Under the pieces are notes generated by a model that was not told the origin of the DNA, ran no database searches, and saw only the letters and a program-made list of their open reading frames with translations. Below, piece by piece: positions 13,881-60,221 of a DNA stretch of 64,000 nucleotides. The stretch's first letter is position 1. Each line of letters starts with the position of its first letter. This stretch comes from Amphiscolops sp. MND2022 (lineage: Eukaryota): contig OZ076409.1 in the NCBI GenBank assembly GCA_964187785.1, forward strand, positions 9,736,001 to 9,800,000, in the 5' to 3' direction. The position numbers and the translations under genes are program-made.

Positions 13881-14263
13881 GCAATACCATTGTCGACTAC
13901 ATCTCACATCCAACGAAGTTAAAAGGAATCGTATAGCGCTCATCATTAAATCCTAACTTAACTTTATCCAACTCAATGCTGTCTTTGTACTATTTATATA
14001 CGATGAACACCCTCCCGCAAATTGGGGATATTAGAAAAAATATATAAATAAGTTAATGCGTTAAGTGTATAAGTTAAATTGTTTAAGTTAATATGCACAG
14101 AGAAGATGTCACTTTTCCCACTCAGGTTGTGTTTCTTTGAGCGGAGCCTGAAATCCATAATCGCCAATTACTGGTTTCTTGTTCATACTTCCTTGCAAAA
14201 AATTGCAACGAATAATTGGTTTCACAAAGTTTAGATCCCAATGTGATGGACTTTTTTTCAGAA

Positions 14264-14460
14264 ATGACTAAGGGAGATGATAACTCAGCTTCGATCAACT
14301 GGCGGGCTGATCAGAGCATTGCACCTCCCTTTTTTCATCACTTGGTGACTGATGATCCATATTTGGTCCCTTATGAAGGAGATTTCCGCTATCGCTACAC
14401 TGAGTTCAAAAAATCTCTTGATGCAATCGAAGCCGATGAAGGAAGCATCTTGAAATTTGC
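14264..14460 (+). CDS. GBE1: 1,4-alpha-glucan branching enzyme, coding exon 1
   Basis: MTKGDD...DPYLVPYEGDFRYRY...EGSILKF; GTAAGT donor at 14461. Confidence 0.88.
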
Positions 14461-14524
14461 GTAAGTTCCAGTGATCATTTTTTGTTACATTTTGTCAAGT
14501 TTACAAATATTTCATTCCTTACAG

Positions 14525-14762
14525 TCAAAGCTATCATGAATATGGTCCACGTTTCCTTCACGATGGCTCGATAAGTTGGCTTGAATACGCTCCCAATGCC
14601 GAAGGAGTTTTTCTGAGAGGTGATTTCAATGAGTGGAACCGAGTTAACACACCCTTCAAGAAGTTGTCGTTTGGAAAATGGCTGCTCGAGTTGCCAGCGA
14701 AATCTGATGGTCAACCAGTGCTGAAACACTTGGATCGTGTTCGCCTCACAATTGCTTCGAAG
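14525..14762 (+). CDS. GBE1: Branching enzyme exon 2 (CBM48 region)
   Basis: QSYHEYG...WLEYAPNAEGVFLRGDFNEWNR...FGKWLLELP; CAG acceptor and GT donor; phase consistent. Missed by the ORF track. Confidence 0.93.
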
Positions 14763-15323
14763 GTTTGTCCGATCTTTTGATATCATTGCTCCAGGTCAAT
14801 GAAGAGATTTGTCAATTCAAACGACCGTTTGCCATTTTGAACATCACCATTTCACGAAACGTTTCTGATTTTTGTAGCTTCTTGCACGTTTCCTGATGAA
14901 TTAGTATTTGACGTTCTCCGAATTTTCAAAGAAGAAAAATTAAAGAGTGTCAACTTTATAAGCATTGCATTGAACTGGATCATGTATGTGGAAATCTCAG
15001 CCATTCCAATCTCGTGATAAGTTTTGAAATCTATGATTTTCCCGACTTCGCAATTTTTTGTTGCAGGTGTAAAGATTTTTCATAATTTCTAAGTTGAAAA
15101 AATATTGATTTAATATTGAGAATTGTACGACGCTGGTTTGAGGGCAAGGGAAACAAGTAATTTATTGTTGCAAAATTTATGTCTGGAAGTCAGCAAATTC
15201 CTCATACTGGAGTGGTCAAAGCCGTAATTACTCCGTTTCCCTTTTTCAAATATGAAAAGTCTCCGCGATATGTGAGAATAATGGTTTCTCGCTGTACTGA
15301 GAAAGACGGTATCTCTTTTAAAG

Positions 15324-15632
15324 GGAGGCGAACTTTTGGATCGCATATCTCCTTGGACAAAGTATGCCTTGCAGCCCGAAGGCTCGTTCACCTACGATCA
15401 ATTGATTTGGCAGCCGGAAAATCCTTATAAATTCACACATCGATCCCCAGCTTTTCCCGAGAACCTCAAGATTTACGAAGCGCACGTTGGCATAGCTTCT
15501 CCTGAAGCCCATGTTTCGAGCTACAACCACTTCACGGAGAAGGTTTTGCCCCACATTGCTGATTTGGGCTACAATTGCATACAGCTGATGGCCATTATGG
15601 AACATGCATACTACGGTTGTTTTGGATACCAA
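15324..15632 (+). CDS. GBE1: Branching enzyme exon 3
   Basis: DRISPWTKYA...LKIYEAHVGIAS...GYNCIQLMAIMEHAYYGCFGYQ; GTAAGT donor at 15633. Confidence 0.96.
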
Positions 15633-16916
15633 GTAAGTTGAACCTTTGATGATAACATTCAACAGTGATTGCTACTGACTACAATCAAGCCTTGACAACA
15701 TCTCCATTTTAAGACGAGCAATGTCTAGCATAGTGATATTAATTCAGCTATTTGTTAATTCTCCTCTTACCAAGGTTTTCAATATTTATTTATATGGTGG
15801 CACCGTTAGTGCCACTGCAAGGAGACTGCAGCTTGCAGCGTATACAACACCCTCTTCAGCTCTCTCCGAATCGCTCTCCTTTTCACACGGGCCCTTTTTG
15901 TATTTGTCTCAACATGAAAAATGGGTTTCGGTACGCACGCACGGTCGTTTTTAGTCAGCGCATTTTAGTAGAAAATGTGCCCGGCTCTTACAGTGTTTTT
16001 TTTACAGAATTTTTCAGACGCGTAAGGTCCATTTTTTTGTTCAACTTGACCAAAACATACCGCAAACCCCAGAACCTCATCCAAAATTATAAAACCGACG
16101 TCCAGAACCTCGAAAACACCTAAGGATCACCACTTTGGCTATCTTCGTGTTTTTCACATTTTTTCGGCACTATAAGACTTTTTCGAAAAATTTTTTTATT
16201 GTACCAAAGGGTCTCCCTTCGATTTTTTTGATATTTTGGAACATCAAAAGGTTCCACCTTTCAGATTTTTCGGTACTGTGAGACTGTTCAAAATTCATTT
16301 TTCATCTGATATTAGGTTTTCTCCAATACATATCCACCAATATTTTTTTCAATACTATTCGAAATTTTACCGCAATATCCGGAGTAAAGCGCTATATCCG
16401 AATTTTTGACGTTATATCCGAAGTATATTCCGTTTTACTGAGAAGGAGGCGGAGGTTCGAAAACAAGCGCTCGCATTTGTCCTAGCTGTGAAAGCAGTGG
16501 AGTATACGAGAATTTAAAATTCGAATTTTGTGATATAGAGTTTATGATGAGATAAAATGCATCGCGTAGGGAGTTATTGTTGAAATGCCAGTGTAAACTT
16601 TTAGGATTATTACAAATACAACTTGCTAATGTACAAGTTTTATTCGATTTTGTTGAAGAGATTTTAGACACTATTTCAGGATTGTTACGAAAGAGATAAC
16701 CTATTTTTTACAATCTATTCAGAGTTGTCGTATTTTAGAAATTATTAAGAACTGACATTACAGTGAAGAAGAAACTAAGCAAAATAACTTAAATTGAGAA
16801 CAATCAATATCCGTAACCTGAGTAATACCATATATCAAAGAATAGTAAAATATATAACAAAGAATAGTAACAGAATAATAAAATATGCAATGATGTCTAG
16901 ATGCACAATCAATAAT

Positions 16917-17505
16917 AACAAGACGGGAACGTCTAAAGTCGGCGCTATATCTAAGGCTCAAAAAAACGCTAAGTTTTTAAACTTGTAAAAGGGGGACCCT
17001 TTCGGCTTTTTGAAAATCCAGTCTGTTGCAAAATATCAAAAAAAAATTGAAGGAGACAATAGAAAAATTCGGATTTTTTTAAAAAAAACTTTCGAAAAAA
17101 CGAAAAATGAAAATTTTGAAACAGTCTCACAGTGCCGAAAAACTAGAAAGGGGGACCCTTTGGGCTTTTTGAAACTTCAGTTTGCTGCAAAATATCAAAA
17201 AACTTGAAGGGGGGACCGTTTGGCGACAAAAGAAAATTCTAAAAAAAAGTCGCACAGTGCCGAACAAAAATCAAAGGGGGGACCCTGTAGTCCCGTCCGG
17301 TTTTGTATCTTACGTTAAAAATTGAGTACACGAAAACGGGGACCCTTTGCAGTAACTCAGATGTGATTCCGCTTGCCGGTTCAGTACTTTTAGTAGTTCT
17401 GTAAAAAGTGTCCACTACGCATACATTCTGTGGTCTGACGAAAAAAAAAAAACTTGCCACTGTAATAGTCGGGCTCATTTTCTTCTAAAATGCGCCGACT
17501 AAAAA
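16917..17505 (-). mobile_element. Helentron-associated interspersed element (HINE / DINE-1-like), full length
   Basis: Minus strand: TTTTT-AGTCGGCGC...CCCGACT at the 5' end and GCGCCGACT-TT-AGACG-TTCC-CGTCT-TGTT at the 3' end (subTIRs plus terminal hairpin); no TSD seen. Confidence 0.75.
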
Positions 17506-17579
17506 TGTTTTAAACATGAAAACTAATACGTCCGCGGCAAAAAGGTACAGTTTGATGGGCCGTAATTTGGCAGACCTTT

Positions 17580-18857
17580 TTATTCAAGGCAATACTTTTT
17601 TGCGGACATGAACTCAAGCTCATACTCGAGGCAGTTTTGTTTCCGTTGATAGTTGTTGGTAGCCTCGCCAGTGTTAGCATCAGGTTGAGGGATAACAGTG
17701 TTAAAATTGTTGGCATCTCCGTTGGAAGTGTCAGATGCTCGTGTAGTAATACCGGTCGATGATGTTCCTCTTCCAGCGCTATTGATAGAAGGTATTCTTT
17801 GACCGGTTCCACTAGTCGTAGCCTGTTGGAAGGAAGTTTGGGGTGGTGTATGAGGTCGGGGAACAACATAACCAGCTTGAACTGTCCCGGGAGTATCGGG
17901 GACAACAGCGCTGATGCGCTTTGTATTGCAAATCTTTATAACTTGTCTCGCTGCAAAATGTAAGGTTGTATTACATCCATTGAGATAACATGCAACGGGG
18001 AGTTGTTGGACCCCATTGCAACAGCAGCTGTGGAAGGCTTCAACCAACCGTGAATTCGGAAACTGCCATTTTCATTTATTAATGACACAATTTATAACTG
18101 CATCCTCGAAGTCGAACTCATAAAAATTGTCAGTATCTGGGACGAGAGAGTTATAACTGTCACTGAAAACCGTAACGACGCGTTTTGAAGTGAAATAAAC
18201 ACTAAGGGAGCCGACGCGCTCTCCTTTCAGTTCATCACAAACTAATTCTATTGTGACACCCGAAGAATGTTTTTTCAAGTCAGTTTCTTTACAGCCACAT
18301 AGTTCCTTCAATATTTGACCGTCACAAAATTTACCACTACATAGCTAAGACACTGTACAAACTGATATGACTTGAAGGGTTACCGTTTTGAAGCAAAAAT
18401 GTTGGAAATCTGCCATTTTAAGAGAGTATTTTGGCAGCAGAGCTGAACATTCTTGAAGGAATATAGGGACTACAGGCTCGGCAGTAGTCAATAAGGGATT
18501 GTCTGAGTCTTGCAAAAATTTTTCGTCTCGGTGACGCGGATTCAGTAGTAAACATGTTGCACCGGTTGTAGATTGGGCGAGAAACGTAACAATTGGGAAG
18601 TTTTGGCGTCGTTGGAAGTGAACATCCCGAAAACTTTCATTACCTCCTTCAGCAAAAAGCAAGAAGCGATGGAAAGCTGCCTCCATAATTTTTGCTTTCT
18701 CCCGGATCCGATACATCCTTACTGGGGTCGGTGTCTTCTTCGTCCTTTGAGAACCTTCTTTGGGAATTATAACATCATCCAATGTCACACCTGAGAATCT
18801 GGAGCTCACCAAATTCATGGCACGTTCCAACGATAAATTAGCAGAAATCAGAGGCAT
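17580..18857 (-). pseudogene. Decayed ORF-B of an unclassified element; Cys motif CSGKFCDGQ-x5-CGC, GWLKP motif, Ser/Thr/Pro-rich tail
   Basis: ORF-track pieces 18345-18866, 18072-18311 and 17580-18047 join through a stop and frameshifts into one ~420-codon reading. Confidence 0.55.
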
Positions 18858-19389
18858 TGTACACAAATCTGAAGCTAGTAGACGATCAGATGTAAGAATG
18901 AATCTTGTTGATGCAATTTTAAATTAAAAGCAAGGAAACCTAAATATTTATATTCGTTCATCAACAATGTTAAAAGTCCGTTATGAAGGCTATCAGAGGA
19001 AATGGTAGCCTTGATGAACAGTATGTATACGGTTCAGTAGTTTATTGAATCTATTGAAAAACTTTACGGAGTTCAATCATGAAAGTATTGTATTGAATAC
19101 TTTGAGAGTACAATGAACTATGGAGCATAAATTATGATCGCGTTAAAAAATAATAGTGTATATAAAAAAAACTAACGAAAACGTTATTAACGAATCGTTT
19201 AATTTCACATTTTATTTTAAACAACTTTCAATTTATGAGTTGATCATTACTACAAAATATAAGCCTCATCAAATGATTGATTCACAATAATTACATATGA
19301 TCGTTTTCGAACAACTACAGAAAAAAGCTCAAAGACTAATTTGAAAGTTTCACAAAGTAATCATACATTGATCACTTACAATGATAAGA

Positions 19390-20610
19390 GATAAGTTAAT
19401 GACAAATCCTAATGAATTTTTCGATTGGACAGGAAAGAAAAATAGCAGATATCTCTGGAAATAGTTGCAGGCCACCAGTTGCATGCGATTACCTGAGAGA
19501 TGAATTTTTCATGTTACAGGTACAGACTTGCCGAGAAAATTCTCACCAGTTAGCTGAGTACCTTGTTGGAATCAGATTGGTTTGTAGATGAAATTTATTG
19601 GCACCTGTCGAATATGGTAATGAGAAATATCGTTGTTCATTTGTTATTCATGGTAGGCTGTTCGTATCATGGGTTATGAAGACAGGTTACTAGGGCCGAG
19701 ATATCCCAGACCAGACTTTTGAGAGAACAAAAATCAAATTAATACGGGAGCGACCGGTATCACTGTGTTCACAGGTTGCTCCCGCATTGGGAAATTTCAA
19801 CCGTAGTGAGTTTTCCCACCACAACGATTTGCAGCATAATTTCTTGATTATTCGGAAAAGCGCAATGAATGGATTGGTGTGCAAGAATAACAACGTCTTC
19901 GGGGCTTGCAGATCTATTCGTCCTGACATCAAAGGCGACATTTGAGTGTATTTGTTGTTCTAATTGCATGCGCTGTCGTTCGTTATTGGACATGTCGGCT
20001 GTGTCGAATCCTGTAATGTAAGGAAATACACCCCCAAGGACGTCGTTGAATCGGCTTTGTAAATGATGCTCCTTGTCCAGCATTATGCTCATACAAACGT
20101 CGTGACAGACAGCGTTTCTCCGACGTAAACCAAATTTGGATAGGGACAACTAACAAGAATATACACATAACCGAGTTTGGAAATAGGTAGACATCGGAAA
20201 AAAGGTTTGAATTGTATTGTTTCACAGTGAAGAATTGGTCACGAGTGGGGCCTGCTTCTGACATCATTATTTCCAGGAAGCTTTCAATGTAAGTAGTTTG
20301 ATGGGAAATTCGACCAATTGTGAGCTTAAAGGTATTCATCTTGTCATCTTTTGGACCAACGAATGTTATGTTACTCAGATTTTGTACACGACCATCAAGA
20401 CAAATAGTTGTTCTCGATGTCAAATGGAGTAACTGCGGTCAGTCGGTGAGATTTTAGTCTGAGTTGATGGAAGAGTACAACCTATTGCTATGTGAATTGT
20501 ACTAGAAATATAATTTTTCAAAGGAAACTGAGTTCGTCTGATGGATATGTGAAGATAGGAAATCATATTCCCAGTTCGTCTTATGAGCACTGGTCTCCAG
20601 CCATATGCCA
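19390..20610 (-). pseudogene. Decayed ORF-C of an unclassified element (unknown function)
   Basis: Overlapping frameshifted minus-strand ORFs (19983-20423, 19769-20149, 19690-19941) with protein-like composition. Boundaries are approximate. Confidence 0.4.
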
Positions 20611-22153
20611 AACTTTTCAAAATTTGATAAGGAATTGTTGATGGCATCGTGCCAAATGATGGTGGGTCGATCATTGTTGAAATTGGCATTCTTTAGGGCA
20701 TGCTTCAACTTTTTGTTAAGAGAACTTGCACCAATCACATTGAACTTCATCATAGCCACTTGAAATGAAAGAGATCATTTGGACTACGCACATGTATTCG
20801 CTTAACAAACCCGCTAAAGTATTGAACATTCGAAAGAACAAGCTAGCTACTCGTTCATCAATAACTTTGTACGTAACTTTCAATCCAAATCAGAAAATTA
20901 AAAAACGTTCCGGACAAATGAGGCCGAGTATAACTCTTGCCGTAACGGTTATAGAATTTTCGATTAGTTAAAGCCGATTTAACGTACGTTGAGAACTTAC
21001 TAAATATGTATATCAAAACTAGGCCGAGCATTGCTCATGTTGAATAAAAAACAAAAATTTAAATCATCGAGGTTGAGTATTACCCATGCTGTTTAAATTT
21101 AGAAATGATAAGCTGAACAGAAAACGTTCACGTACTAAAGTTCAATGTAAAGTATATAAAATAAAGGAGTTAAATAAAGTAAATTAATGAGATAAACTAA
21201 AGCTGTTATTTTATACCATTCTTTTGATCTTCGTATGTTGCTCTAACTCGGCGTCGTACCTGTAAAACAAATAGATTTTAGACAACAATGAGAAATAATT
21301 TTTAAAGGAAACTACATTATAAAATGAGAATGTACCAAAGTGTCTCCCCTTCAATTTTTGAGATTTTGGAACATAATAGATGTTTGAAAATTCCAAAGAG
21401 TTCCCCGTTTCAGATTTTTTGGCATTATGAGACTTATCAAATTTCATTTTTCATCTGATATCAGGTTTTCTCAATACGTATCCACCAATCAATACTATCC
21501 GAAGTTTGAACTCAATATTCGGAGTAAAGCGCTATATCCGAATTTTTGACGTCATATGACGTTTTTTTTACCGTTGACTACTCATTTGTTGGGTGGTGCT
21601 GCAGTTGTTACAATCAGAGACTTTTAGCAAACATGCCACAGTTTTGGCATTTGGTAACAAATCGTCTCCTTCGAGGAGGCAATTTGCAAATCATGATCTG
21701 AAAGACAAAAAAATCTTTTGAATGTAATGAAATGAAATATCGATGGGCCCATATGTAGACTGGTCATTAGTAGACGTATAATCGTAACCGAAAAGTATGC
21801 TCTCAAATTGTATAATTGTTGCAAAAGTTCATGAAAATCGTAATCTAAGTAAACCATTATGAATCACTTTTTGAAATGAGTTTCAAGTAGATTAGAAAGA
21901 CTAAAGAACTCGATCAGTTAATCAAAAGTTTTCAAGAGTTAATAAAAACGTTTTCAATTTAACAAACGCGCATTAGACAAACGCAAAACTAATAGGATTC
22001 AACTCATCATCAGTAAATGAAAACAGTAAATCGCAAGTCACAATGCGTTAATAAACAGTTCACAATTTAAACGAAAGTGTTTAAAAAGCTGATCACAAAA
22101 CAGAAATCTAGCTTCCATGTTGCATCAAACAACTGAACGCAACAACAAAGAAC

Positions 22154-22747
22154 TATTTATTAAAATTCAATTTTCCAAGATACTGTCTCTTTGACGGCCG
22201 ATTTTTTCCAGGAATTCGCCATTTTCCAGGACCTCTGGTCAGTCCAATTAAACTTTGGCATAGCTGCAGAATCTCGAAACATTTAAATTCTAAGTTTTTG
22301 TTTGGATGGAGAACTGTAGTATCATTAGATTTATATTCTGGCGGCAGATATCTTTCATGTCCAGGTAAATTATTCCTGGCGGTGACCCATCCGGGAGGCA
22401 GGAATTAAAGTAAATCACAGAATCATTCCTGAGGAAAAACAGGAAGGCAACAACACCATATGCTCTGCATTCGTCTAGGTAATCATACAATTCTTTTCTA
22501 CTGAGAGCCAAACTCTTTAAAAAATTTGATGAGGAATTGTGGATGGCATCGTGCCAAATGATGGTGGGTCGATCATTGTTGAATTTGGCATTCTTTAGGG
22601 CATGCTTCAACTTTTTGTTTGGATATCCTTTAACATCTCTAGTGAATGCCTTCCCTGGTTCTGATTTTGTTTCATTTGGTCTTTTGTCAGGCCCTAATGT
22701 TTTATTTTGCCAAGAGAACTTGCACCAATTACATTGAACTTCAACAT
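22154..22747 (-). pseudogene. SGNH/GDSL hydrolase-like ORF, copy A (others at ~24156-24746, 26432-26728, 20620-20753)
   Basis: Stitched reading gives MLKFNVIGASS (block I-like), SEPGKAF (II), IIWHDAI(H/N)NS (III) and DTTVLHP (V), in SGNH order; frameshifted. Confidence 0.55.
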
Positions 22748-24899
22748 AGCCACTTGAAATGAAAGACAGATCATTTGGACTACGCCCATGTATTCGCTTA
22801 AAAAACCAGCTAAAGTATTGAACATTCGAAAGAACAAGCTAGCTACTCATTCATCAATAACTCTGTACGTAACTTTCAATCCAAATCAGAAAATTAAAAA
22901 ACGTTCCGGACAAATGAGGCCAAGTGTAACTCTTGCCGTAATGGTTATAGAATTCTCGATTAGTTAAAGCCGATTTAACGTACGTTGAGAACTTACTAAA
23001 TATGTATATCAAAACTAGGCCGAGCATTGCTCATGTTGAATAAAAAACAATTTAAATCATCGAGGTTGAGTATTACCCATGCTGTTTAAAATTAGAAATG
23101 ATAAGCTGAACAGAAAACGTTCACGTACTAAAGTTCAATGTAAAGTATATAAAATAAAGGAATTAAATAAAGTAAATTAATGAGATAAACTAAAGCTGTT
23201 ATTTAATACCATTCTTTTGATCTTCGTATGTTGCTCTAACTCGGCGTCGTACCTGTAAAACAAATAGATTTTAGACAACAATGAGAAATAACTTTAAAAG
23301 GAAACTACATTATAAAATGAGAATGTACCAAAGTGTCTCCCCTTCAATTTTTGAGATTTTGGAACATAACAGATGTTTGAAAATTCCAAAGAGTTCCCCC
23401 TTTCAGATTTTTTGGCATTATGAGACTTATCAAATTTCATTTTTCATCTGATATCAGGTTTTCTCAATACATATCCACCAATCAATACTATCCGAAATTT
23501 GAACTCAATATTCGGAGTAAAGCGCTATATCCGAATTTTTGACGTCATATGACGTTTTTTTTACCGTTGACTACTCATTTGTTGGGTGGTGCTGCAGTTG
23601 TTACAATCAGAGAGACTTTTAGCAAACATGCCACAGTTTGGGCATTTGGTAACAGATCGTCTCCTTCGAGGAGGCAATTTGCAAATCACGATCTGAGAGA
23701 CAAAAAACTTTTGAATGTAATGAAATGAAATATCGATGGGCCCATATGTAGACGGGTCATTAGTAGACGTATAATCGTAACCAAAAAGTATGCTCTCAAA
23801 TTGTATAATTGTTGCAAAAGTTCATGAAAATCGTAATCTAAGTGAACCATTATGAATCACTTTTTGAAATGAGTTTCAAGTAGATTAGAAAGACTAAAGA
23901 ACTCGATCAGTTAATCAAAAGTTTCCAAGAGTTAATAAAAACGTTTTCAATTTAACAAACGCGCATTAAACAAACGCAAAACTAATAGGATTCAACTCAT
24001 CATCAGTAAATGAAAACAGTAAATCGCAAGTCACAATGCGTTGAAAAACAGTTCAGAATTTAAACGAAAGTGTTTAAAAAAGGTGATCACAAAACAGAAA
24101 TCTAGCTTCAATGTTGCATCAAACAACTGAACGCAACAACACAACACAAAGAACTATTTATTAAAATTCAGTTTTCCAAGATACTGTCGCTTTGACGGCC
24201 GATTTTTTTCAGGAATTCGCCGTTTTCCAGGACCTTTGGTCAGTCCAATTAAACTTTCGCATAGCTGCAGAATCTCGAAACATTTAATTTCTAAGTTTTT
24301 GTTTGGATGGGGAACTGTAGTATCATAAGATTTATATTCTGGCGGCAGATATCTTTCATGTCCAGGTAAATTATTCCTGGCGGTGACCCATCCGGGAGGC
24401 AGGAATTCAAGTCAATCACAGAATCATTCCTGCGGAAAAACAGGAAGGCAACAACACCATATGCTCTGCATTCGTCTAGGATATCATACAATTCTTTTCT
24501 AGTGAGAGCCAAACTCTTTAAAATTTGATAAGGAATTGTTGATGGCATCGTGCCAAATGATGAGGGGTCGATCATTGTTGAAATTGGCATTCTTTAGGGC
24601 ATGCTTCAACTTTTTGTTTGGATATCCTTTATCATCTCTAGTGATTGCCATCCCTGGTTCTGATTTTTTTGTTTCAATTGGTCTTTTGTCAGGCCCTAAT
24701 GTTTTATTTCAAGAGAACTTGCACCAGTTACATTGAACTTCAACATAGCCACTTGAAATAAAAGACAGATCATTTGGACTACGTACATGTATTCGCTTAA
24801 CAAACCCGCTAAACCCGCGGACAAATGAGGCCGTGTATAACTCTTGCCGTAAAGTGTTATAGAATTCTCGATTAGTTAAAGCCGATTTAACGTACGTTG

Positions 24900-25967
24900 A
24901 AAACTTACTGAATATGTACCCGCTTTCATATGGTGTGCAACTTAAGACTGTATAACAGCGGGCGCAAGTCTGTCGGTACATTTTTGGGGATATGAACCAG
25001 TAGCGGGATTTGTAGGAGAATGAACGTATTGGAGATGAGACCCTCTGTTGTGGTCACAACAGATTACTATTAAAGGGCCGTGTTATCTACTAAGATAAAT
25101 AGGTTTACTCATGAAACCATGGTGGTCTTCGTCGTCTAGCCAATCAGACCGAGCTCCTTTTAGATGTTTCCTGTAATCTGCGCTAAAAAATGTAAAGGAA
25201 GGGAAAAGCTTATTAAGGAAATGTTGCAATGAAATGTAACCAATGTATTTTTTGTCTGTGAACGTAGTGCATCCGAAGGGACATCTCACATCAAGAAAAG
25301 CAGTTTTTTGTGAGAGTCTTCATTTTCATCTAGAATATTTCTCTTTTATTTCGTTTAATTTCAACTTCAACGGTAACATCTGCAAAGTTACAATGTGGAG
25401 AGTTAGAAAAGGCTGAGTGTCGTAACAAATGCTGCCAAAAGATCTGTAAAGACGGTGGTATTATTTGCCAAATGTGAACCCCATGTGTTGGTTTTTCAAC
25501 AGATAATAAACAAGTTAACAGAGCAGATGGCCAGCCGAATTCCCATCTGTCTGATGTAGTAGTTCTGCTCAAATAGGTAAAACATAATTCACAAACGAGA
25601 ACACTGACTCCAGATCCAACTTTCGCCCCTAGTCTCCTTTTCACTATTGAGTTAACAGACACCTCTAGCAACGGACCACATATAAGACGGGACATTTACA
25701 ACATTCTTCTTCAGTAACCGGGATCTGATCTAATTCACTGAGATCGGGAAATAGTGATTCTGCATTACTGCTGGGTATGGCTGAAACAATTGGTGAACTT
25801 ACAGTTTGTGATTCCACTGAGGCCGAGATTACTTCGTTCTCAGACCGTTGACTACTCATTTGTTGGGTGGTGCTGCAGTTGTTACAATCAGAGAGACTTT
25901 TAGCAAACATGCCACAATTTGGGCATTTGGTAACAGGTCTCTTTCGAGGAGGCAATTTGCAAATCAT
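24900..25967 (-). pseudogene. Decayed ORF-A of an unclassified element; N-terminal part of a large Cys-rich protein
   Basis: CPNC..CNNC, CELC...GWPSA, RCPFGC...LKGARSDWL and HGPLIVICCDHNRG...YVHSPTNP read colinearly across stops and frameshifts; truncated near 24900. Confidence 0.55.
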
Positions 25968-27631
25968 GATCTGAAAGACAAAAAAAACTTTTGAATGTAA
26001 TGAAATGAAATATCGATGGGCCCATATGTAGACTGGTCATTAGTAGACGTATAATCGTAACCGAAAAGTATGCTCTCAAATTGTATAATTGTTGCAAAAG
26101 TTCGTGAAAATCGTAATCTAAGTAAACCATTATGAATCACTTTTTGAAATGAGTTTCAAGTAGATTAAAAAGACTAAAGAACTCGATCAGTTAATCAAAA
26201 GTTTTCAAGAGTTAATGAAACGTTTTCAATTGAATAAACGCGCATGAAACAAACGCAAAACTAATAGAATTCAACTCATCATCAGTAAATAAAAACAGTA
26301 AATCGCAAGTCACAATGCGTTAAAACAGTTCAGAATTTAAACGAAAGTGTTTAAAAAGGTGATCACGAATAAGAAATCTAGCTTCAATGTTGCATCAAAC
26401 AACTGAACGCAACAACACAAAAAACTATTTATTAGAATTCAATTTTCCAAGATACTGTCGCTTTGACGGCCGATTTGTTCCAGGAATTCACCGTTTTCCA
26501 GGGCCGTAAGGAATTGTTGATGGCATCGTGCCAAATGATGGGGGGTCGATCATTGTTGAAATTGGCATTCTTTAGGGCATGCTTCAACTTTTTGTTTCGA
26601 TATCCTTTAACATCTCCAGTGAATGCCATCTCTGGTTCTGATTTTATTTGTTTCAATTGGTCTTTTGTCAGGCCCTAATATTTTATTTTGTCAAGAGAAC
26701 TTGCACCAATTACATTGATTTTCAACATAGCCACTTGAAATAAAAGACAGATCATTTGGACTACGTACATGTATTCGCTTAACAAACCCGCTAAAGTATT
26801 GAACATTCCAAAGAACAAGCTACACATTCATCAATAACTTTGCACGTAACTTTCAATCCAAATCAGAAAATTAAAAAACGTTCCGGACAAATGAGACCGA
26901 GTATAACTCTTGCCGTAATGGTTATAGAATTCTCGATTAGTTAAAGCCGATTTAACGTACGTTGAGAACTTACTAAATATGTATATCAAAACTAGGCCGA
27001 GCATTGCTCATGTTGAATAAAAAACAAAAATTTAAATCATCGAGGCCGAGTTTTACCCATGCCATTTAAAATTAGAAATGATGTGCTGAACAGAAAACGT
27101 TCATGTACTAAATTTCAATATAAAGCATTCAATTTAATGGAATTAATTAAAGTAAAATAATGTAAATTAAGTAATATAATGAGGTAAACTAAAGCTCTTA
27201 TTTTTTTATACCATTCTTTTGATCTTCGTATGTTGCTCTAACTCGGCGTTGTACCTGTAAAAGAAATAGATTTTAGACAACAATGAGAATTAAATTTTAA
27301 AGGAAACTACATTATAAATTGAAAATGTACCAAAGCGTCTCCCCTTCTATTTTTGAGATTTTGGAACATAATAGATGTTTGAAAATTCCAAAGGGTCCCC
27401 CCTTTCTGATTTTCGGCATTATGAGACTGTTCAAAATTGATTTTCATCTGATATTAGGTTTTCTCAATACATATCCACCAATAATTTTTTTCAATACTAT
27501 CTGGAATTTGAACGCAATATCCGGAGTGAAGCGCTATATCCGAATTTTTGACGTTATATCCGAAGTATATTCCGTTTTACTGAGGAGGAGACGGAGGTTC
27601 AAAAACGAGCGCTCGCATTTGTCCCAACCGC

Positions 27632-36959: not shown

Positions 36960-37471
36960 GTCACTGCCTTTTTCGCTGCCAGTAGTCGTTATGGCACTCC
37001 TGACGAATTGAAGAAACTTGTTGACACAGCGCACGGAATGGGGCTGACCGTTTTACTGGACATTGTCCACAGTCACGCGGCCAAAAACACTCTCGACGGT
37101 CTGAACATGTTTGACGGGTCTGACAGCTGTTTCTTCCATTCGGGAGCGAGAGGAAACCACAATTTGTGGGACAGTCGTCTTTTCGACTACAAGAATTGGG
37201 AAACTCGGCGTTTCCTGCTGTCCAACCTTGCCATGTGGATCGAAGAATATCAGTTTGATGGATTCCGTTTCGACGGAGTCACTTCCATGCTCTACCATCA
37301 TCACGGGATAGGAACCGGTTTCAGTGGGAACTATGGGGAGTATTTCGGACTGCATGTCGACACTGATGCTCTGGTTTATCTCATGCTGGCCAGTTATTTG
37401 GTCAAGAACTATTTGAAAAAGGACGCGGTCCTGATTGCCGAGGACGTGTCCGGTATGCCAGCTTTGTGTAG
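36960..37471 (+). CDS. GBE1: Branching enzyme exon 4 (GH13 catalytic core)
   Basis: [22 protein letters not shown]...DIVHSHA...[18 protein letters not shown]...IAEDVSGMP; joins exon 3 in phase 0. Confidence 0.97.
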
Positions 37472-37690
37472 GTTAGTTAATTTCCATCTTTTGATGGGTT
37501 TTGTCTAGATCTGTGATAGGGAGTATTGCTAAACATGCAACTCATGTTTTTATCTGTCCGTCAATCGGGCAATGCGCCTTTGAAAGTCTTTTCTGGTACA
37601 GTGTGGTGACTAGTGTTGTTTATCCAAGTTCTATTTAGTAGATACCGGATAAATTAAATTATTATATATTATAAAAATGTTGTGTTGTAG

Positions 37691-37878
37691 ATTGGTGGAC
37701 GAGGGCGGGGTGGGGTTCGACTACCGACTGGCGATGGCCATCCCGGACATGTGGATCAAGCTGCTGAAGGAGAAGAAGGACGACGAGTGGGACATGGGCG
37801 CCATCTGCCACCTGCTCAGCAACCGCCGCTACAGGGAGAAGTGCATCGCCTACGCCGAGTCACACGACCAAGCATTGG
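37691..37878 (+). CDS. GBE1: Branching enzyme exon 5
   Basis: [23 protein letters not shown]...[16 protein letters not shown] boundaries in phase. Confidence 0.96.
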
Positions 37879-39790
37879 GTATGAAAAATACAATACTCTT
37901 CCTGTACCTCTGCCATGTCTTTAGCCACCTTGGTTTTAACCACCTCGTTCACTCGGAAAAGCACTACTGATCTGTTCTGTTAATTAACCCCACCGATTCA
38001 ATTGCCCACCGCAGTTAAGCGGTCAAGTGAAGTTATCATTGATAGTAACAGCCAATCAAATTGCAGTATTTTATAACTCTAACTGCAACTGAAACTCATC
38101 GCTCATATTGGGGGAATTAAACTTTCCGGGTTTACTGTGGTGGTGAGAATGAACAGAAAGGGTCCGAGCCGACGTTTACTATACTATACTCGGGGTTTTC
38201 ACATCCTGGGCACTGAATTAATACCCTCATAATGATAATTTAACGTATCTGCTGAAAGTAGACAAACAATCATGGTTATTAAAATTAATTTTAAAAAAGC
38301 ATCAACAAAAGAGACTTCCAAGGGCTCATGCCGCTTGAATTCGAGCTTCTCAAAATTTGACATCATATTCAGCGATGTCCATGTTTATTCATAATTTAGA
38401 TGGAATTTAATAAAATCGTACTCGGTTTAAATTTGAGGCGTGTTTGCACACTAACATGACGGCGTTTGGGTTCTTGTGTTTTGAGTCTGTTTTCTGCTCC
38501 TGAATGCCCTTTACCTAAGTTTTCAAATGCGCACTAGTTAGATCGGGAGTTGGTGCCACTTGTTGGGGGTTAGAACCGGACCTTTCAAATGCCGGTCAAA
38601 CTCATAACTGAATATTCATAAAGGACCGTTCGCATCGAAACCGAAAAAGTAATGGTCTACGTATGTATGGCCCAGGTTACAGAGGGGGCTTGTCAAATAC
38701 GTGAGGAAGGTGTCGATACGCTGCAAGCTGCAGAGCCTCCTTGCAGTGTCAGTAACGGTCCCGTGAAAATAAATTTGAAAACCTCGGTAAGTGGAGGACT
38801 AATTTATAAAATAAAACACCGGATCGCAAAGTAGATGCTCGTCTATAAAACAGCGTATCACAATTGAGTTGCTCGTTATGAAATTACTGAGAGCTTGAGA
38901 GCCTCCCCTCTTCTAATAACTGAATAATAACTGAATCTTCATTGAAAAAACCTCTATATGCGTCTTCAATGGTGGCCTGCTGTGTTATTCGAGTGGGAAA
39001 GTAACTTAGCAACCAGTTACTCAGGTATCGAGAAAATGCTATTTCTCTGAAATGTAAAATTTTGCAAATTTTAACTTGGTGACTCGGAAAAAACTCAAAT
39101 AACAACTCACCCCAGATACTCTAATAGATTGTTGACAAGAAAGACAAAGTTTCGTTTTCCTCCATTCCTTATGCGTTTCGTAATTTTTTATTGATTGCGA
39201 AAAAAAACGATATCCTCATTTGAGGACGAAATCACTGTCGAGGTTAATAAAAATTGACATCACTGATCATATTTGAAAAAGGTAATTAAAATAGGCGGCT
39301 CTTTCAAAATTTTGTTCTTTTCTGTTTTTCCCCCCACCACCAAAATTTTTGAAAATAACTTTCCTTAAAAACTTTAGACTATCCTAATTAAAAGTAAAAC
39401 ATTCTTTCATAACAGGAAGTTAACTTCTATTAGAGTAGTTTTCTGCTTGAACAAAACATTGTTCACGCATTTTGACTATGATTATGTTCGTATTAAGTGT
39501 CTATTGATGACTTAAAACAGGAAGCTGTTGATTTCTTCATCAAAAATGCGTGACTACTTAAGGAAAAAGTGTGAACAAAGTTTGTATCTGAATCCTTAAC
39601 TATCACCTTGAGAATAAGTTTAAAACTGAAGCTTTCTGGTTTGTATTCAAATCTATTTGTTATAATATTTTCACTAATTTTCCAAAAAAAATTTGGTGGG
39701 GGGGGGAAACAGAAAAGAGCCCTAAATTTTTTCACATTGTGGGTTTGAAGTAAGTTAGTCGAAGTAAGTTAGTTGAAGGCCTTGTTTTAG

Positions 39791-40028
39791 TGGGAGACAA
39801 AACCTTGTCATTCTGGCTGATGGACAAGGAAATGTACACGGGCATGTCTTGCGTGGTTCCTCGCAGTCTTGTCGTTGACCGCGGGATGGCGCTGCACAAG
39901 ATGATCAGACTGCTCTCCCACGCAATGGGCGGCGAGGGATACCTCAACTTCATCGGCAACGAGTTCGGACATCCCGAGTGGCTGGACTTCCCGCGGGAAG
40001 GAAACGCATACAGTTACCATTACGCTAG
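39791..40028 (+). CDS. GBE1: Branching enzyme exon 6
   Basis: [15 protein letters not shown]...[29 protein letters not shown] boundaries in phase. Confidence 0.96.
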
Positions 40029-40043
40029 GTGCGCAAACACTTC

Positions 40044-40738
40044 AAAAGCCGAGTCATACAGCCAATAAAATTAATTGAGATGATGCTTTCTAAATTGATC
40101 ATTATGAAAATCGGCCATTTGGTTTCGCTTTAAAATCGACCATTTTGTAACGTTTTCAAAATTGGCCATATAGTTATGTTGAATATAGGACGAATATTTT
40201 GTGAAAACCTGATACTTTCTCAAATCATTTGAGTCTGAGAACACCACTGAATCTATGATATCGCAACGAAGTTTCTTGATAATTTAAAGACTTTCCAATG
40301 CCAGCAAAACTGTGATATAATTCTAGGACAATACGCCCAAAGACATTACGCCCAATAATTATACATATAAGAATCTTCCAAATTAGTGGGCGTAATGTCT
40401 TCGTGCGTATTGTCCTAGAACTGCTAGGTGATTTCATCACTTACTCAATTTCATTTTCACTGGCTTTTGAAAGTCTTTGAATTATCAAGAAGCTTTGTTG
40501 CGATATCACTAGTCCAGTGGTGTTCCCAGATGCAAATGATTTTAGAAAAGTATCAGATTATTGCCTAAAAATTCATCCGATATTCAACATAGCAAAAGGA
40601 CCAATTTTGAAAACGTCACAAAATGTTCGATTTTAAAACGTTACAAAATGGCCGATTTTCAAAATGACCAATTTAGAAAACATTATTTTATCGAGTTAGT
40701 TATCTATATTATTTTTATCGGCTGTATGACTCTGCTTT
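40044..40738. mobile_element. Foldback/palindromic element (~690 bp) with an inner 100-bp inverted-repeat module
   Basis: Arms pair along most of their length (GAGTCATACAGCC/GGCTGTATGACTC; AAAATCGGCCATTT/AAATGGCCGATTTT). Inner TTCTAGGACAATACGC...GCGTATTGTCCTAGAA at 40321-40420. Confidence 0.8.
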
Positions 40739-42478
40739 CTTCCTTCAAGGGCGTTTTTAACACTTTGAGGATCGGCCGGTTTGTTAGCGTTTATTGAATC
40801 GGCCATTTTGTTATACCTAAGAATCGGCCGTTTTGTAGCGTACCCGTAAAATTTCCCAAATCCCGTGCAAATTACGCGCGTCTCTGCAGAATCTTTATGA
40901 ATAAGCTAATAAAAATAGTAAGATAATAAAAATATCATTCGTGTTATACTGATCCGATTCTCTCACTTAATATTGCAGAAAGCGTCAACCTAATTTTTCT
41001 GAACAGAGAATGGTGATATTGGAGCTATGAGAGTTACCACCTACTTTCAATTAGCCTGAACCCATTTCTATTTGTCTGATTCAGTCTCCGCTCCGCCTTT
41101 TGACGTCTATTATTCATTTACTCATGTAAACTGAGTAGTCATTTGCATTATCGGAGCATGACATCGGCGGCTATTGAATTGATGAATGAAATCTTTGTTT
41201 ACTCTATCCTGTTTGACCTCCCGAATACTTGACCACTCCTCGTTACGTGCACTGTTCTTACCCCTAATTGTCATGTTCTTGAGGCCATGCTGTATGGTGA
41301 CTATTCAAATCGTAGAATATTCAAACTGTCGAAAAAATCAAGGCTATTCATAGCGTCGAAAGAATTCTATAGCGATTATTTTCAGGTTATAAATTGAAGA
41401 GGTTAGCATATTTGTTGTATGGCTCGGTCGCTTCGCTCCCTTCGCCAAGTAGCAACATTGAGGCATGGTCATATGGCACGTCGCTTCGCTCCTGCATTTA
41501 GGGTACTAGGGGTATATGAGCATAGCTGATTACATTATCGTAATTAGTTCGTCGCTTGTGCTGTATTCATTTTACTGAATTTGATTGGCTCATTGAATGA
41601 ATGTTTGGTCACGTGACTATGACGCGCAGTATTTACTGCGTATAAACTGCTTTCGACGCTTTGAATATTCTACGATTTGAATCGTCCCCATGCTGTATCC
41701 CATGGTCTTGTAATTTGTATATGGATCATGCTTCTTATCCCCCAAGCGGCCGCTGGGAGAAATAAGAAACATGGTTCAAATACCGTTATGTCGACATTAT
41801 TAGCGCTAAAATTTCTGTCCAATAAAATAATTGATGTCAATATAATCATATCTTTTACATTGACTGCCAATTAAAAGTTGTTCATTTTAATTGATTGCAG
41901 AGGAAAAGGGGCTTTTCTATGCAATTTTAGCTTGTTCCAGGGGTGATTTTTTTGTCAGAAAAATAACGAAGACCGCATAATTTTTGCTGCAAGTGTCGAA
42001 GCAACTCGTGAGACAACCTTTTAAGTATTAATAGCCATATCAATTTTTTGTCATTCGCACAAGAGGCTTTTTGAAGCATAAAAGATGTTTTCGTGTTGGG
42101 GGAATAAGATCTCTTTCACTAAACCCCCTGCAGCAAAAAGGGGGGACATAGTGAAACGCTATAAAATACATCTATTGCGCATTCTAATAGCGCAGATCTG
42201 CTCTTATCTAACAACGCTTCTGATTGGCTGAGTGGGGATTTTGATAAGAACCAATAAAGTGTCGTTAGTTATGACGACATCAGTTGATTGACAGAATAGC
42301 ATGAGAGATTAGCCAATAGGAGATAAATATAAATGAGCCACAAACATCCTTTTTCTTTAGGGGGGACATAGTGTAACGAGTGATATAGGGGGCATAGTGA
42401 AAGAGATCCGGGGAATAAATAACAGGATGTTCTGGGGGGTGGGGCGTTAACAAACATGGTCCTTGCATATATTTCATG

Positions 42479-43677
42479 GGATGCGGACAAAACAGCCGAT
42501 TTTAAAACGAGACCAAACAGCCGATTTCAAAATGAGACAGAACAAGCCGAATTTCAAAACGGGACAAAGCATTCGATTTTCAAAACGGAACAAAATGAGT
42601 GCTGTTACAGCCAATATGCATGGAAATTGATTTATTTGAAGAGGTTCATATGTAACGGCAAGCTCTGGTACAGCAATATCAACCGATTTTGCAACTTTGA
42701 CATGTTCAGAAATTTTGTCAAAAATTCTAATCCGATGTGTGACGTGGCACTGAGCATGTGATTGCTCTTTTCGCTGTTTCCACGAAATTGGCAGGTACTT
42801 CGACAACAAAGAGCAAGAACGAGCAAAAACACGGGCTCGCCGCCATGACAGAAGCCAGAGACGGCAAGAACATCCGAAAATAGACTCTTTTTGAGGTGCT
42901 AACACTGGTTTTATCGATTTTCAGCATTATGCTACCCTATGTAGCGGAAACCGTAAAAATGAGTCTTTTCGCCTAAAGATCCTTGTTTGGTGCTTGGAGC
43001 CCCTGCGCCCCAGCTTTTTAGCTGTGTGGTTTGCCATATTCGTGCCTGTTTTCATGTATTTTCAGTGATTTTGGCTGTATTCAGTAGCGCTAGCGCTAGT
43101 TTAGATCTTAGTCCCCAATTTTAGATCTTATTCACATGTCACCCCGGAACTGGAAATTTACCTTATTCTTGGCATTGTTTTTATATGCTAGTTAAGTGGT
43201 GGTCTTTAGAGAGTCAGAAAGATGCCCGTTACTATTAGCAATCAAAGACTAGGACCGGTTGGACAGTATTCGTCGAAGCACCCGCGGCCCCGGGACTTAT
43301 TTCACCCCTGGAGGCAAAATAGATCTGTGGCGATGGGCGCCTGTCCCGAGCGAATCACCCATTCCTGCAGGTTCCTCCACCTCAGTTAACGTGTTAAGCG
43401 ACCGATAACTGCTTGCCGTTACAATATTTGTAGTATGGCTCGGTCGCTTCGCTACCGTCGCCAAGTAGCAACATTGAGGCATGGCTTCGCTCCTGCATTC
43501 AGGGCACTAGGGGTATGTGAACATAGCTGACTAGTTTATAATAATAATTTTATTGACTGCTAATCTTACGCATTGACAAAATCATCCATTTTGTACTGTA
43601 TTAAAATCGGCTGTTTTGTCATATTTGAAAATCGGCTGTTATGTCGCGTTTAAAATCGGCTATTTTGTCCCGCTACC
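42479..43677. mobile_element. Non-autonomous TIR element with perfect 8-bp TSD (Merlin-like)
   Basis: TSD ATTTCATG at 42471-42478 and 43678-43685. GG-starting TIRs (GGATGCGGACAAAACAGCCGATTTT / AAAATCGGCTATTTTGTCCCGCTACC) with tandem subterminal repeats. Confidence 0.75.
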
Positions 43678-44596
43678 ATTTCATGCAGCCGCATTTTGCT
43701 GATTCGGAAATTTTCTGGTTCTTTACTCCTCGTCACGGTGTTAGAAGCAGTGAATTAGGTCGCTTGTAAGCGACGTAATGTAGAAAATACCGACAGCGAA
43801 AATGATCACGGAAATTGGCGCTACTTTGATTGGTCGGAACTATTTCTCAATTTTCAGAATATAGTAACCGTGCCGGGCCTGTTGGGCATCGGAATAGTTG
43901 ACAAGCATCATCACTGAATTCGGAAATGTTACCCTTAGACTTTTCAAAAGCATAGTTGTCTAGTACTCAGCGTTAAACTCGACACCAGTAGAATTGAAGC
44001 ACTTCTTTTGTACCAGTATTTTGTTGACAAAATAGTGTAACAGATCAAATTCGAAAATTCGCAGTTGTTGAAAAATTGAATTGCTTTGCCACAAAACTTT
44101 TCCAAAAAGCGCCGCTTACGCTTTAGGGGGTCAGTCACAAGCGCAACAAGTGATAGAACAAGCGTTTTTTGGAAAAACCTAATTCACTGGATAGTTTTAA
44201 TTATGTTTTAATTTTGATGACTTTCTTGAAGTAAACTCATAATAGTGAGTTGCCTCTCCAGAATCGAATTATACTGGATCGAAAATGATAATTCATTTTA
44301 AATTTCGAAACTAAAATTGGTTGTATGACACGGCCTTTCTCCCTCCTTCAAGTCGACCTTCTTCGAAACCTGCCGTTGGCTTTGTAGCGGCATGTCGCTT
44401 CGCTTCGCTACTGAATTTAGGGCACTATATATATGGTGTAATGGTAATGAAAATTTCACCTCATGAAAATCAAGTCACAATTCGATTCTAGATAATTTTG
44501 CTAATTTTTCGATCCTACATGATTCGGCTCTGCAAAGCAATCCCATAATAGTAAATGATTTGGTTTGACTTTCGTCGTATTTGTGTTTCATTTCAG

Positions 44597-45029
44597 GAGG
44601 CAATTCAATCTAATAGAAGACGAGTTGCTGAGATACAAGAACCTTTCATGGTTTGACAAGGACATGAATTTGCTGGAGAATGAATTCAAATGGCTGTCTG
44701 CCGATCCTGCTTACGTCAGTCGCAAACACGAGATGGACAAAGTGATTGTGTTCGAGAGAGCCGGATGTGTTTTCGCTTTCAACTTCCACCCCAACCAGAG
44801 TTACGCTGATTACTGGATCGGGGTGGAAAGGCCGGAACCCTTTGCATTCAAATGCGGCCTCAGCACCGACTGTGGGCGCTACGATGGTCATGATCGGGTA
44901 GACATGAACAACGTCTTCAAAGCGTTCCCAAAACCGCTAGATGGCCGCAGGTCTTCTCTGCAAATCTACCTGCCGTCCAGGGTCGCAATTGTTTTGGTAC
45001 CTGCTGATGTCTATGTTGGGCCTTGCTGA
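44597..45029 (+). CDS. GBE1: Branching enzyme exon 7 (C-terminal domain, stop)
   Basis: RQFNLIEDELLRYKNL...KVIVFERAG...FNFHP...IYLPSRVAIVL. The seven exons total 2115 nt = 704 aa + stop. AATAAA near 45806. Confidence 0.96.
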
Positions 45030-45070
45030 ATGAAGAAAGCAAGCTGTTGTGTATTCTTGAAACTGTACTC

Positions 45071-46949: not shown

Positions 46950-47022
46950 GTTGTCCACCCCAGGAATCGAACCTGCGGGCTCCTGGTCTCCAATCAGTCA
47001 CTCCCTCGCTAACCACTAGGCA
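46950..47022 (-). other. tRNA-derived / Pol III promoter-like segment inside a HINE-related repeat
   Basis: Minus strand shows an A-box-like CCTAGTGGTTAG and a B-box GGTTCGATTCC; no convincing cloverleaf. Confidence 0.45.
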
Positions 47023-48429
47023 AAGTGGTGGGAGCAACTCGCAATTTATAGATCAGACGTCAATGAGAAAGGTCGGTCAGCTCGCCGTCTTGAAAAAACC
47101 ACTATCTGCGTTTTCTACGTAAGTGCCCCCAAAAGTTAGTTTGGTTCTCTTCAAGAATTTGAAATGCAGAATAATACTTTAACCTCGACAGCACACTGAG
47201 AAGTCGAAAAATTGACAAAAGTTTGCTTCTGATTTTCTGCTCCTGAAAGCCCTTTGTCTAAGCTTTAAAATGCACACTAATTCAGCTGGGAGCTTCGCCG
47301 GGTCTTTCAAATTCCGGTCGTACGCACAGATGAAGCTTCATTGAAAAAAGTCCTTTATGCGTTTTCTATGGTGGCATACTGTGTTACTAAAGTGGGACAG
47401 TAACTTTGCAAACAGTTGCCCCAGTTATTGAGAAAAAACAAATTTTTTGAAATAAAATATTTTTGCAAAATCTCACTTTTTTCCAGTTACTTTTTTGCCG
47501 ATGTATCGGAAAAAAACATGTATATTGACACAAATAACGACTCACCTCAGTTAGTCCAATGGATTGTCGATGAGAAAGACAAATTTTCGTTTTCCTATTA
47601 TCATTTTGCGTTTCGTAATTTTCTATCGATTGAGAAAAAATCGCTGTCCTCATTTGAGGACGAAATCACTGTCGATGTTAAAACCGCGAAGTTCTATGTT
47701 ATCATCATCACATTTGTGTAAATGTCCTACAACTGGGAATAGAAATTTGTTTTGAACTCGCAAATATATTAACAATTGACCGCAGCTTATCGATCGATTG
47801 ATTGTTCATTGTATCATTGTATAGTTTGATCTGTGGTCTGACAAATAAATCGCCACTTTAAGAATCGCGCTTTTTTCAGAAAAAGCACGGACTAGAAATG
47901 AGAGTCTGCATGCGAAGAAAACGGTCAGTTAATGACATGCTTGTGATTGTGACCGCAACAAACGTCTCATTGAATGCTCAAGATTTCCGAAAACTTTTAG
48001 TTTTCCCTGACTTTTAGGAGAGAGTGGGAATAAATTTTCGATTACTTATGCTCACTCGTACTTTTTTCTCCCGAACTTTCAATGAAAATTTCAAATTTCT
48101 CAAACTGTTCATAGGAATTTTATAAAATTTTGCACGGTCATTCTACATTGTATCCGCAGATACTCTTGCGTGTGCAATGACATCAAAATAGTATGACTGG
48201 CATCTGAGTAACAGCCAAAATTAGTCCAAAAATGACAAAGTACATGTTTGTTCTGTTCTTCAATGTCTTAATCCGTTTCCGACTCCTTTACCGCACATGC
48301 GGCTCTGGTTTTACTATCCGGATGATCGGACATATTAATTTGTGACCCCTAGTGAAGAGAATTTAAAAAGGCGTCTATAAATGTTCCCTACAAGAATGAC
48401 AAACTTGTCCAGTTTGGTTTAAGGTTGTA

Positions 48430-48530
48430 ATGATAGCCAATCATAATGGAGATGAGAGTGGCACAAGTCGCATTAAAGTTTTACAGCAAACGAATAATGT
48501 CCGTGAACTTCAGACGATTATTCGCGACAA
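48430..48530 (+). CDS. UPRT: Uracil phosphoribosyltransferase homolog, coding exon 1
   Basis: MIANHNGDESGTSRIKVLQQTNNVRELQTIIRDK (RELQTIIRDK is conserved in animal UPRT); GTAAG donor at 48531. Confidence 0.85.
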
Positions 48531-48603
48531 GTAAGGACTTATCATTGAGTGCATGTAGAATCTTGGCTATGTTTGCAGATGCTTTTATTTTGACAACTCT
48601 GAT

Positions 48604-48939
48604 CAGAGTTTTGACACCGCTAATTAGCGGTGGCCAAGGAATTTGACTAATAGAATGTCCAAATTCAAAACTTCCTCTGAATATACCCGGAATTTCACAA
48701 TAAATATGGAAATATTCCTACCCTTGCCATCGTAAAACCTACACATAAAAAAATCCCTGTACAGTAGTATAAAAACACTGTATAAAAGTCTATTTTCTCG
48801 CAAACCTAATTTCGGTTACTAGTCAATTTTGAAAGTCAAACATTCAATACTTTGTAGAAAAAACCTTTTCAGCAAAATAGCGATTCTTAAATTAGCGGTT
48901 TAGCGATTAGCCGAAAAAATTAGCGATGACAAAACCCTG
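48604..48939. mobile_element. hAT-type MITE (same family as 45071-45373)
   Basis: TIR CAGAGTTTTGACA/TGACAAAACCCTG; TSD ACTCTGAT/ACTTTGAT (7/8). Confidence 0.85.
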
Positions 48940-49072
48940 ACTTTGATGAAAGTATTTAATCTCAATAATTACGAGATCAAAACTATACCTTTCTGGGGGA
49001 TTTGATTCTTTGAACCGTAGCCTTTTCAGAATCTAATGGGATTCTGGTTTCAATAAGAACTCGGCGACTGTC

Positions 49073-60210: not shown

Positions 60211-60221
60211 GTTAGCCGTCG

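Follow-up and report, generated by a model that had tools for sequence, protein, structure and literature searches.

The window analysed here comprises 64,000 nt of the genome of Amphiscolops sp. MND2022 (contig OZ076409.1, positions 9,736,001 to 9,800,000, forward strand), and holds the host genes GBE1, UPRT and PEX2 together with several mobile elements. GBE1 occupies 14264..45030 on the plus strand, as mapped by tblastn and by comparison with homologues, and its intron 3 houses a decayed Helitron and a hAT element, both antisense to it; downstream lie UPRT and, inside intron 1 of UPRT and on the same strand, PEX2. A sequence-only reading of this DNA had singled out seven AG...ATG strings as splice acceptors just before the starts of seven unrelated open reading frames (ORFs), and had proposed that they receive a trans-spliced leader, in part to resolve operons. 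All seven strings sit where that reading placed them, but some of the ORFs belong together: ORF-A, the SGNH-like ORF and ORF-B are three genes of the one Helitron. Below, the spliced leader (SL) of this genome and its traces in genomic copies of mRNAs are set out and brought to bear on these sites.

The spliced leader and its fossil trans-splices

The best match of UPRT in homology searches is that of Symsagittifera roscoffensis at 90% identity, followed by an unnamed protein at 84% and then by matches of at most 64%; the last exon of GBE1 finds its closest homologue at only 57%, i.e. no near relative. As judged from the UPRT matches, the source is an acoel related to, but of a species distinct from, S. 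roscoffensis, for which an SL and the trans-splicing of 30.2% of genes are reported (bioRxiv 10.1101/2022.08.27.505549, PMC9911081). The published SL finds 2601 matches in the present genome at up to three mismatches, against none for its reversed control, and the leader is identical over 31 nt. These genomic copies take two forms, arrays of SL RNA genes and retroposed mRNA heads. Among the matches listed, 9 of 20 SL loci are arrayed genes reading SL+GTAA(G/C), most of them with the word AATTTTTG downstream, an Sm-like site by the consensus used for SL RNA genes. Since the genes here read SL+GT, the published final A of the S. roscoffensis leader is the first base of the next exon. The fold of the SL RNA is better than that of any of 200 shuffled sequences (z -4.0), and leader, GT donor, Sm-like site and stem-loops are all present in the SL RNA genes. 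The genomic search for an SL RNA gene that the sequence-only reading had suggested is thus answered by these arrays. The window itself contains no SL copy at up to nine mismatches, and a scan of it at Rfam gathering thresholds returned 0 matches. SL trans-splicing is real in this genome, but already published for acoels.

Retroposed heads were sought among the 403 exact SL copies that lack a following G (103 of them SL+A) and the 63 copies in which the SL is followed by G, any base and then a base other than A. We examined 157 of these 466 candidates, a skewed sample (100/103 with A, 30/63 with G and 27/300 with T or C), which fall into 88 clusters. One locus, L231, is a mutated SL gene; none of the 157, whether headed by host or by transposon sequence, was flagged for flanks like those of SL genes, and an A directly precedes the leader in 147.

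One line of evidence comes from XRN2. Locus L180 is an intronless XRN2 copy. Its parent on C12 has four exon blocks, and the point at which the copy switches to SL coincides exactly with a TTTTCAG in the parent, 11 nt upstream of the ATG. Because the retrocopy joins the SL at this TTTTCAG of its parent, the kind of acceptor flagged in the window is used in this genome.

A second line of evidence is provided by long interspersed nuclear elements (LINEs). Six clusters, with 38 loci, were traced to an ORF2 with reverse transcriptase (four by Pfam and two by motif), and many others resemble them by eye in ORF1. The SL forms the 5' end of these families, because their members differ in upstream flank. 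The SL-headed LINEs (L037-L093, L162-L231, L247-L276) are dispersed and comprise several families, with a PHD-type or SGNH first ORF and an endonuclease-reverse transcriptase ORF2; at ten of them no convincing target-site duplication was seen (best 7-11 nt, mostly misplaced). Ten families have both long and short heads, and in six of these an AG in the long head immediately precedes the point where the short head begins, this AG being part of YTTCAG in five. At the level of genomic copies, these pairs show LINE transcripts to which the SL was joined internally, at CAG/TAG sites.

A third line involves a long terminal repeat (LTR) element. Five SL-headed host copies have one upstream flank in common, and the carrier proves to be a young, non-autonomous LTR element with direct repeats of ~2 kb that are 99.5-100% identical. 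Of its 12 copies (L288-L299, at C7:10.87, C5:1.04, C5:10.48, C3:87.16 and C9:22.57 Mb of G000 and at seven further places), ten hold the SL with the 5' portion of a host mRNA, always at one and the same base, and two are empty. The seven cargos derive from XRN2, WDR36, a nucleoside transporter, CSE1, an AMP-binding enzyme, eIF2A and a TRPM-SLOG protein, and in four of them the ATG follows the SL by 4, 7, 8 or 11 nt. The most economical reading of this arrangement would be one capture of the SL and subsequent template switching via homology to it; its rival would be repeated capture at a single hot spot. Taken together, the XRN2 pair, the seven cargos and the LINE head pairs present the same leader at acceptors of unrelated mRNAs, the parent having been compared for XRN2 only.

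Several side observations concern these heads. By eye, the XRN2 cargo seems to pass into a second gene before the sequence returns to the LTR element. In 30 of the 157 heads 9-19 nt antisense to the SL follow it directly, often succeeded by TTTCAG or a mutated form of it, and in L068 (1500-1570) the antisense stretch creates a hairpin of 19 bp resembling the first stem of the SL RNA. In L069 a short basic ORF starts 3 nt after the SL; it presumably resembles ribosomal protein L41.

Candidate acceptors at the locus

That AG is common by chance, as the sequence-only reading had itself cautioned, is borne out by the background rates: an AG lies 2-11 nt upstream of 44.6% of the 2186 window ATGs, a YYYNAG upstream of 9.1% and a YTYCAG upstream of 2.1%, with corresponding rates of 43.7%, 7.7% and 2.0% in 24 other stretches. 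It could hence be held that the sites are hand-picked products of chance, the more so as the ATGs named for PEX2 (49036, a six-codon upstream ORF) and for ORF-A (25967, private to this copy) are not real starts, those of GBE1 and UPRT being upheld by homologues. Against this, the strict motif stands before just 2.1% of ATGs, and the acceptors are conserved among Helitron copies that are only 72-87% identical; chance as the whole explanation strikes us as barely credible. The loose motif precedes a plausible start at 5/7 sites (binomial P ~1e-4) and the strict one at 3/7 (P ~3e-4), both values being optimistic, and the enrichment only rough, because the motifs were defined after the sites had been seen. 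The form YTYCAG|A is common to the GBE1, PEX2, ORF-A, ORF-B and hAT sites.

Two further explanations apply to the sites in general. Their TCAG motifs might be initiator elements of separate promoters, at which transcripts start unspliced. A TATAAA 48 nt upstream of the UPRT AG accords with this; the other sites lack a TATA box within 60 nt (8/9 sites examined have none), and a pyrimidine tract and a branch-like TTGAC word precede ORF-A in three of four copies, features of an acceptor that make initiators a very unlikely account. Alternatively, the sites could be ordinary cis acceptors of introns in 5' untranslated regions or of first introns, each with its own upstream exon, and PEX2 an alternative last exon after UPRT exon 1. 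A consensus donor is missing within 300 nt upstream of GBE1 and within 600 nt of UPRT, and present for PEX2, SGNH and ORF-A; its absence proves little, because donors in this genome are lax (GTTAGC in GBE1/UPRT introns, GTTAAA in XRN2), which leaves room for cis splicing. Since several cis introns of GBE1 and UPRT use AAG acceptors, the two flagged AAG sites likewise stay eligible. The use of the same motif and spacing for trans-splicing in XRN2 speaks against cis splicing throughout, and as a general account we consider it improbable; it is weighed below gene by gene.

The GBE1 site (14254..14266, plus strand; AG 14260-14261, ATG 14264; context TTTTTTCAG) is the best of the seven and a candidate SL acceptor, with a start consistent with homologues. 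A TATA-like word lies at 14041, 220 nt upstream. As a separate observation, a 439-nt stretch from the GBE1 5' end, acceptor and ATG included, is duplicated at 8087-8525 (the region spans 8087-14316), and between the two copies lies an insertion of 5.3 kb that has direct repeats of 1016 nt.

The UPRT 5' end (48376..48432, plus) comprises the TATAAA at 48376, a weak AAG at 48421-48423 and the ATG at 48430, which fits the start of S. roscoffensis UPRT. Because the TATAAA lies 48 nt before the AAG (such a word has a chance of ~2% per 40 nt), UPRT likely has its own promoter. The gene (48430..60212, plus) has exons at 48430-48530, 57070-57112, ~58396-58529 and 59951-60212, the last exon lying just beyond the window; a PDB search with exon 1 returned nothing informative.

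PEX2 (49023..50301, plus) starts further downstream than had been supposed: Met 1 of both homologues aligns to the ATG at 49073, 43 nt past the acceptor AG (49028-49029), with the upstream ORF at 49036-49056 and a second AAG ending at 49057, 15 nt before the true ATG. From the UPRT donor to the PEX2 acceptor is 499 nt, and since only 156 nt of this are non-repeat there is little room for a PEX2 promoter. In favour of cis splicing here, a GTAAG donor stands 500 nt before the acceptor. Yet joining UPRT exon 1 to the PEX2 acceptor gives a stop after two codons and would leave PEX2 behind two upstream ORFs; because of this early stop, PEX2 is likely to be co-transcribed with UPRT and released by SL addition. 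The PEX2 coding sequence is broken by a repeat at ~49457-49791, where the homologues are continuous, and may represent a null allele or be subject to unusual splicing. The repeat is an abundant inverted-repeat element with a short duplicated target, in the only PEX2 coding sequence found.

The operon of GBE1, UPRT and PEX2 in a row, as envisaged by the sequence-only reading, does not hold in that form, PEX2 being nested in UPRT and GBE1 and UPRT lying 3.4 kb apart. A GBE1-UPRT operon appears unsupported, because the non-repeat part of this spacer (1319-1805 nt, an upper bound from a partial repeat library built on 0.97 Mb) exceeds the 1-kb cut-off described for Macrostomum (PMC8629364) and because the TATAAA precedes UPRT.

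The Helitron (17504..27270, minus strand) consists of three tandem 5' units, with most of its Rep-helicase gene missing. A near-intact copy at C10:36.408-36.420 Mb encodes an SGNH-like protein of ~200 aa, a Rep-helicase-GIY-YIG protein of 2411 aa, in which PF14214 and PF05970 occur within one ORF, and ORF-B of 403 aa; in tests for canonical termini and a 3' hairpin the ends of the Helitron were placed only roughly. Extra SGNH and OB-fold genes are known from some Helitrons. Near the 5' end lies a mini-exon X (27212..27254, minus, repeated at 23252-23210 and 21259-21217), made up of a TTTACAG acceptor, 43 nt ending in ATG and a GT donor. It is conserved, at 40-43 nt, in 4/4 other copies, and the sequence common to the copies starts just 6-51 nt upstream of it. 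This conservation makes exon X a candidate SL acceptor of the element; alternatively, the TTTACAG may be a motif of the terminus that serves transposition.

The acceptor of ORF-A, the N-terminus of the Rep-helicase (25965..25980, minus; AG 25972-25971), is where cis splicing is likely right. The word TCTTTCAGA is unchanged in the four aligned copies, and the spacers that follow (18, 18, 18 and 15 nt) contain no stops and are in frame with the exon X ATG, because of which the acceptor likely ends an ordinary Helitron intron opened by the conserved exon X donor. In three other copies the ORF-A ATG lies 18 nt past the AG, and the ATG at 25967 is absent from them. The ordinary introns that the sequence-only reading had named as its alternative are thus probable here, and its trans-splicing of the co-oriented ORFs probably fails for ORF-A and probably stands for ORF-B. 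The ORF-B site (18855..18876, minus; AG 18870-18869, ATG 18857) has TTCAG in 3/3 copies with spacings of 11, 11 and 10 nt to the ATG; this change of phase speaks against a cis-spliced coding exon and, since the spacer shifts between copies, fits a non-coding leader. The exon X ATG is out of frame with both ORF-B and SGNH in the window copy. ORF-B is likely an OB-fold protein (a lead of 0.93 at low recognition). The SGNH-like site (22745..22762, minus; AG 22754-22753, ATG 22747) combines a weak AAG with a conserved upstream donor, its CAAG being kept in 8/8 units; the window copy is frameshifted, its ORF stopping after 17 codons, and the protein was named by motif and in the sequence-only reading, with no Pfam match. 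SL-headed SGNH ORFs elsewhere in the genome were considered as proof for this site and rejected, being first ORFs of LINEs.

The hAT transposase has a candidate acceptor at 36281..36300 (minus; AG 36295-36294, ATG 36283). One other copy (L136) has TTTTCAG at the same position, and in another (L139) the site is deleted; a hAT dimerisation match downstream is below cut-off, and the start finds no confirmation in any family match. The 3' end of the element is present as seven tandem 1.04-kb copies (27650-34800), which were considered as an SL array and rejected, the window holding no SL. Positions 1-7700 contain a partly duplicated LINE whose ORFs resemble those of SL-headed families (L071, L084, L089); no SL was found in the 10 kb upstream of it.

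Proposed mechanism and its implications

These observations lead to the proposal, to which we assign a probability of about 0.68, that in a genome with thousands of SL copies the GBE1, PEX2, ORF-B and hAT acceptors likely receive the SL, with ORF-A likely spliced in cis and UPRT likely transcribed from its own promoter. Trans-splicing as first suggested is thus upheld for the genome, where host acceptors 4-11 nt before an ATG are in use; for the seven sites it is likely at these four and doubtful at ORF-A, UPRT and SGNH. Several points weigh against the proposal. None of the SL-headed copies seen derives from GBE1, UPRT, PEX2, hAT or a Helitron gene, and searches for retrocopies of GBE1, UPRT and PEX2 found none; in one of these searches just 40 of 1595 candidates, for the most part a repeat, were scored. 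In S. roscoffensis no more than 30.2% of genes undergo trans-splicing (PMC9911081), and parasitic flatworms are described as having many acceptors that serve both cis and trans use. Among the seven LTR cargos, the long ORF starts well away from the SL in two (at 215 and 293 nt) and was not found in a third, and four of the ten LINE head pairs are not joined after AG. The PEX2 allele, moreover, may not be functional, as its coding sequence is interrupted in this assembly.

Under the proposed mechanism, transcription from the UPRT promoter would continue into intron 1; addition of the SL to the PEX2 acceptor there would release the PEX2 mRNA, and splicing of exon 1 to exon 2 would yield UPRT. 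The Helitron would receive the SL at exon X near its 5' end, exon X would then be spliced in cis to the Rep-helicase exon, and SL addition would free ORF-B, and perhaps SGNH too. As posed, this adds a second acoel species to a mechanism already published, a modest gain, and the transposon findings outside the window matter more. SL-headed retrocopies offer a route to mapping trans-splice sites from DNA alone. Further, the SL may act as a universal handle for mobile DNA, a view whose prospects seem to us evenly balanced: LINEs would renew their SL 5' end each round by trans-splicing out of host transcripts, the Helitron would open with a bare acceptor where a promoter would be expected, and the LTR element would use the 31-nt SL as a standing homology cassette to swap in any trans-spliced host mRNA during reverse transcription. 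The SL-headed LINEs suggest how retrotransposons might restore a complete 5' end without a promoter, and the exchange of host mRNAs by an LTR element at a fixed leader junction would, if true, be a defined, testable route of gene duplication in SL-using animals.

Comparison with known systems

The present system shares with S. roscoffensis the 31-nt leader and multiple SL RNA genes, and shows the sequence features of SL trans-splicing described there (PMC9911081); the main text of that G3 paper has 0 occurrences of 'operon' and of 'Helitron'. The SL operons of Macrostomum lignano are described as having repeat-rich spacers, 18% of them beginning with a gene that is not trans-spliced, under a spacer cut-off of <1 kb (PMC8629364). 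The UPRT-PEX2 pair is alike in its repeat-rich spacer and in a first gene that is probably not trans-spliced, but PEX2 is nested in an intron, and the GBE1-UPRT spacer exceeds that cut-off as measured with a partial repeat library.

For SL-headed LINE families, an LTR carrier with an SL junction and an SL-dependent Helitron, no animal report was found in the literature searched, most subscription papers being outside its reach, so that novelty is not proven; the relevant passages of chaetognath and parasitic-flatworm papers likewise did not contain these features. The closest precedents differ in kind. Dinoflagellates have DinoSL-tagged retrogenes, genomic mRNA copies that start with the leader (PMC6050394, PMC5585692, PMC12014239), whereas here many heads belong to animal LINE families and the host copies sit at a fixed site of an LTR element. 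NeSL and CRE/SLACS/CZAR are R2-group non-LTR elements of nematodes and trypanosomes that insert into SL genes (PMC3636483); like them, the LINEs described here are retroelements linked to SL sequence, but they are dispersed rather than inserted into SL genes, and their ORF2 is of the N-terminal endonuclease-reverse transcriptase type. In LTR-mediated retroposition, pieces of host mRNA in young LTR elements are ascribed to template switches at short similarities (Tan et al. 2016, PMC5131818); here, whichever of the seven cargos is present, the complete SL forms one of the junctions, and its position in the element does not vary by a base. Finally, the Helitron shares with its relatives a Rep and PIF1 helicase in one ORF, and differs in having a conserved acceptor and an ATG-ending mini-exon within ~50 nt of its apparent 5' end, with the SGNH-like gene situated inside its probable first intron.

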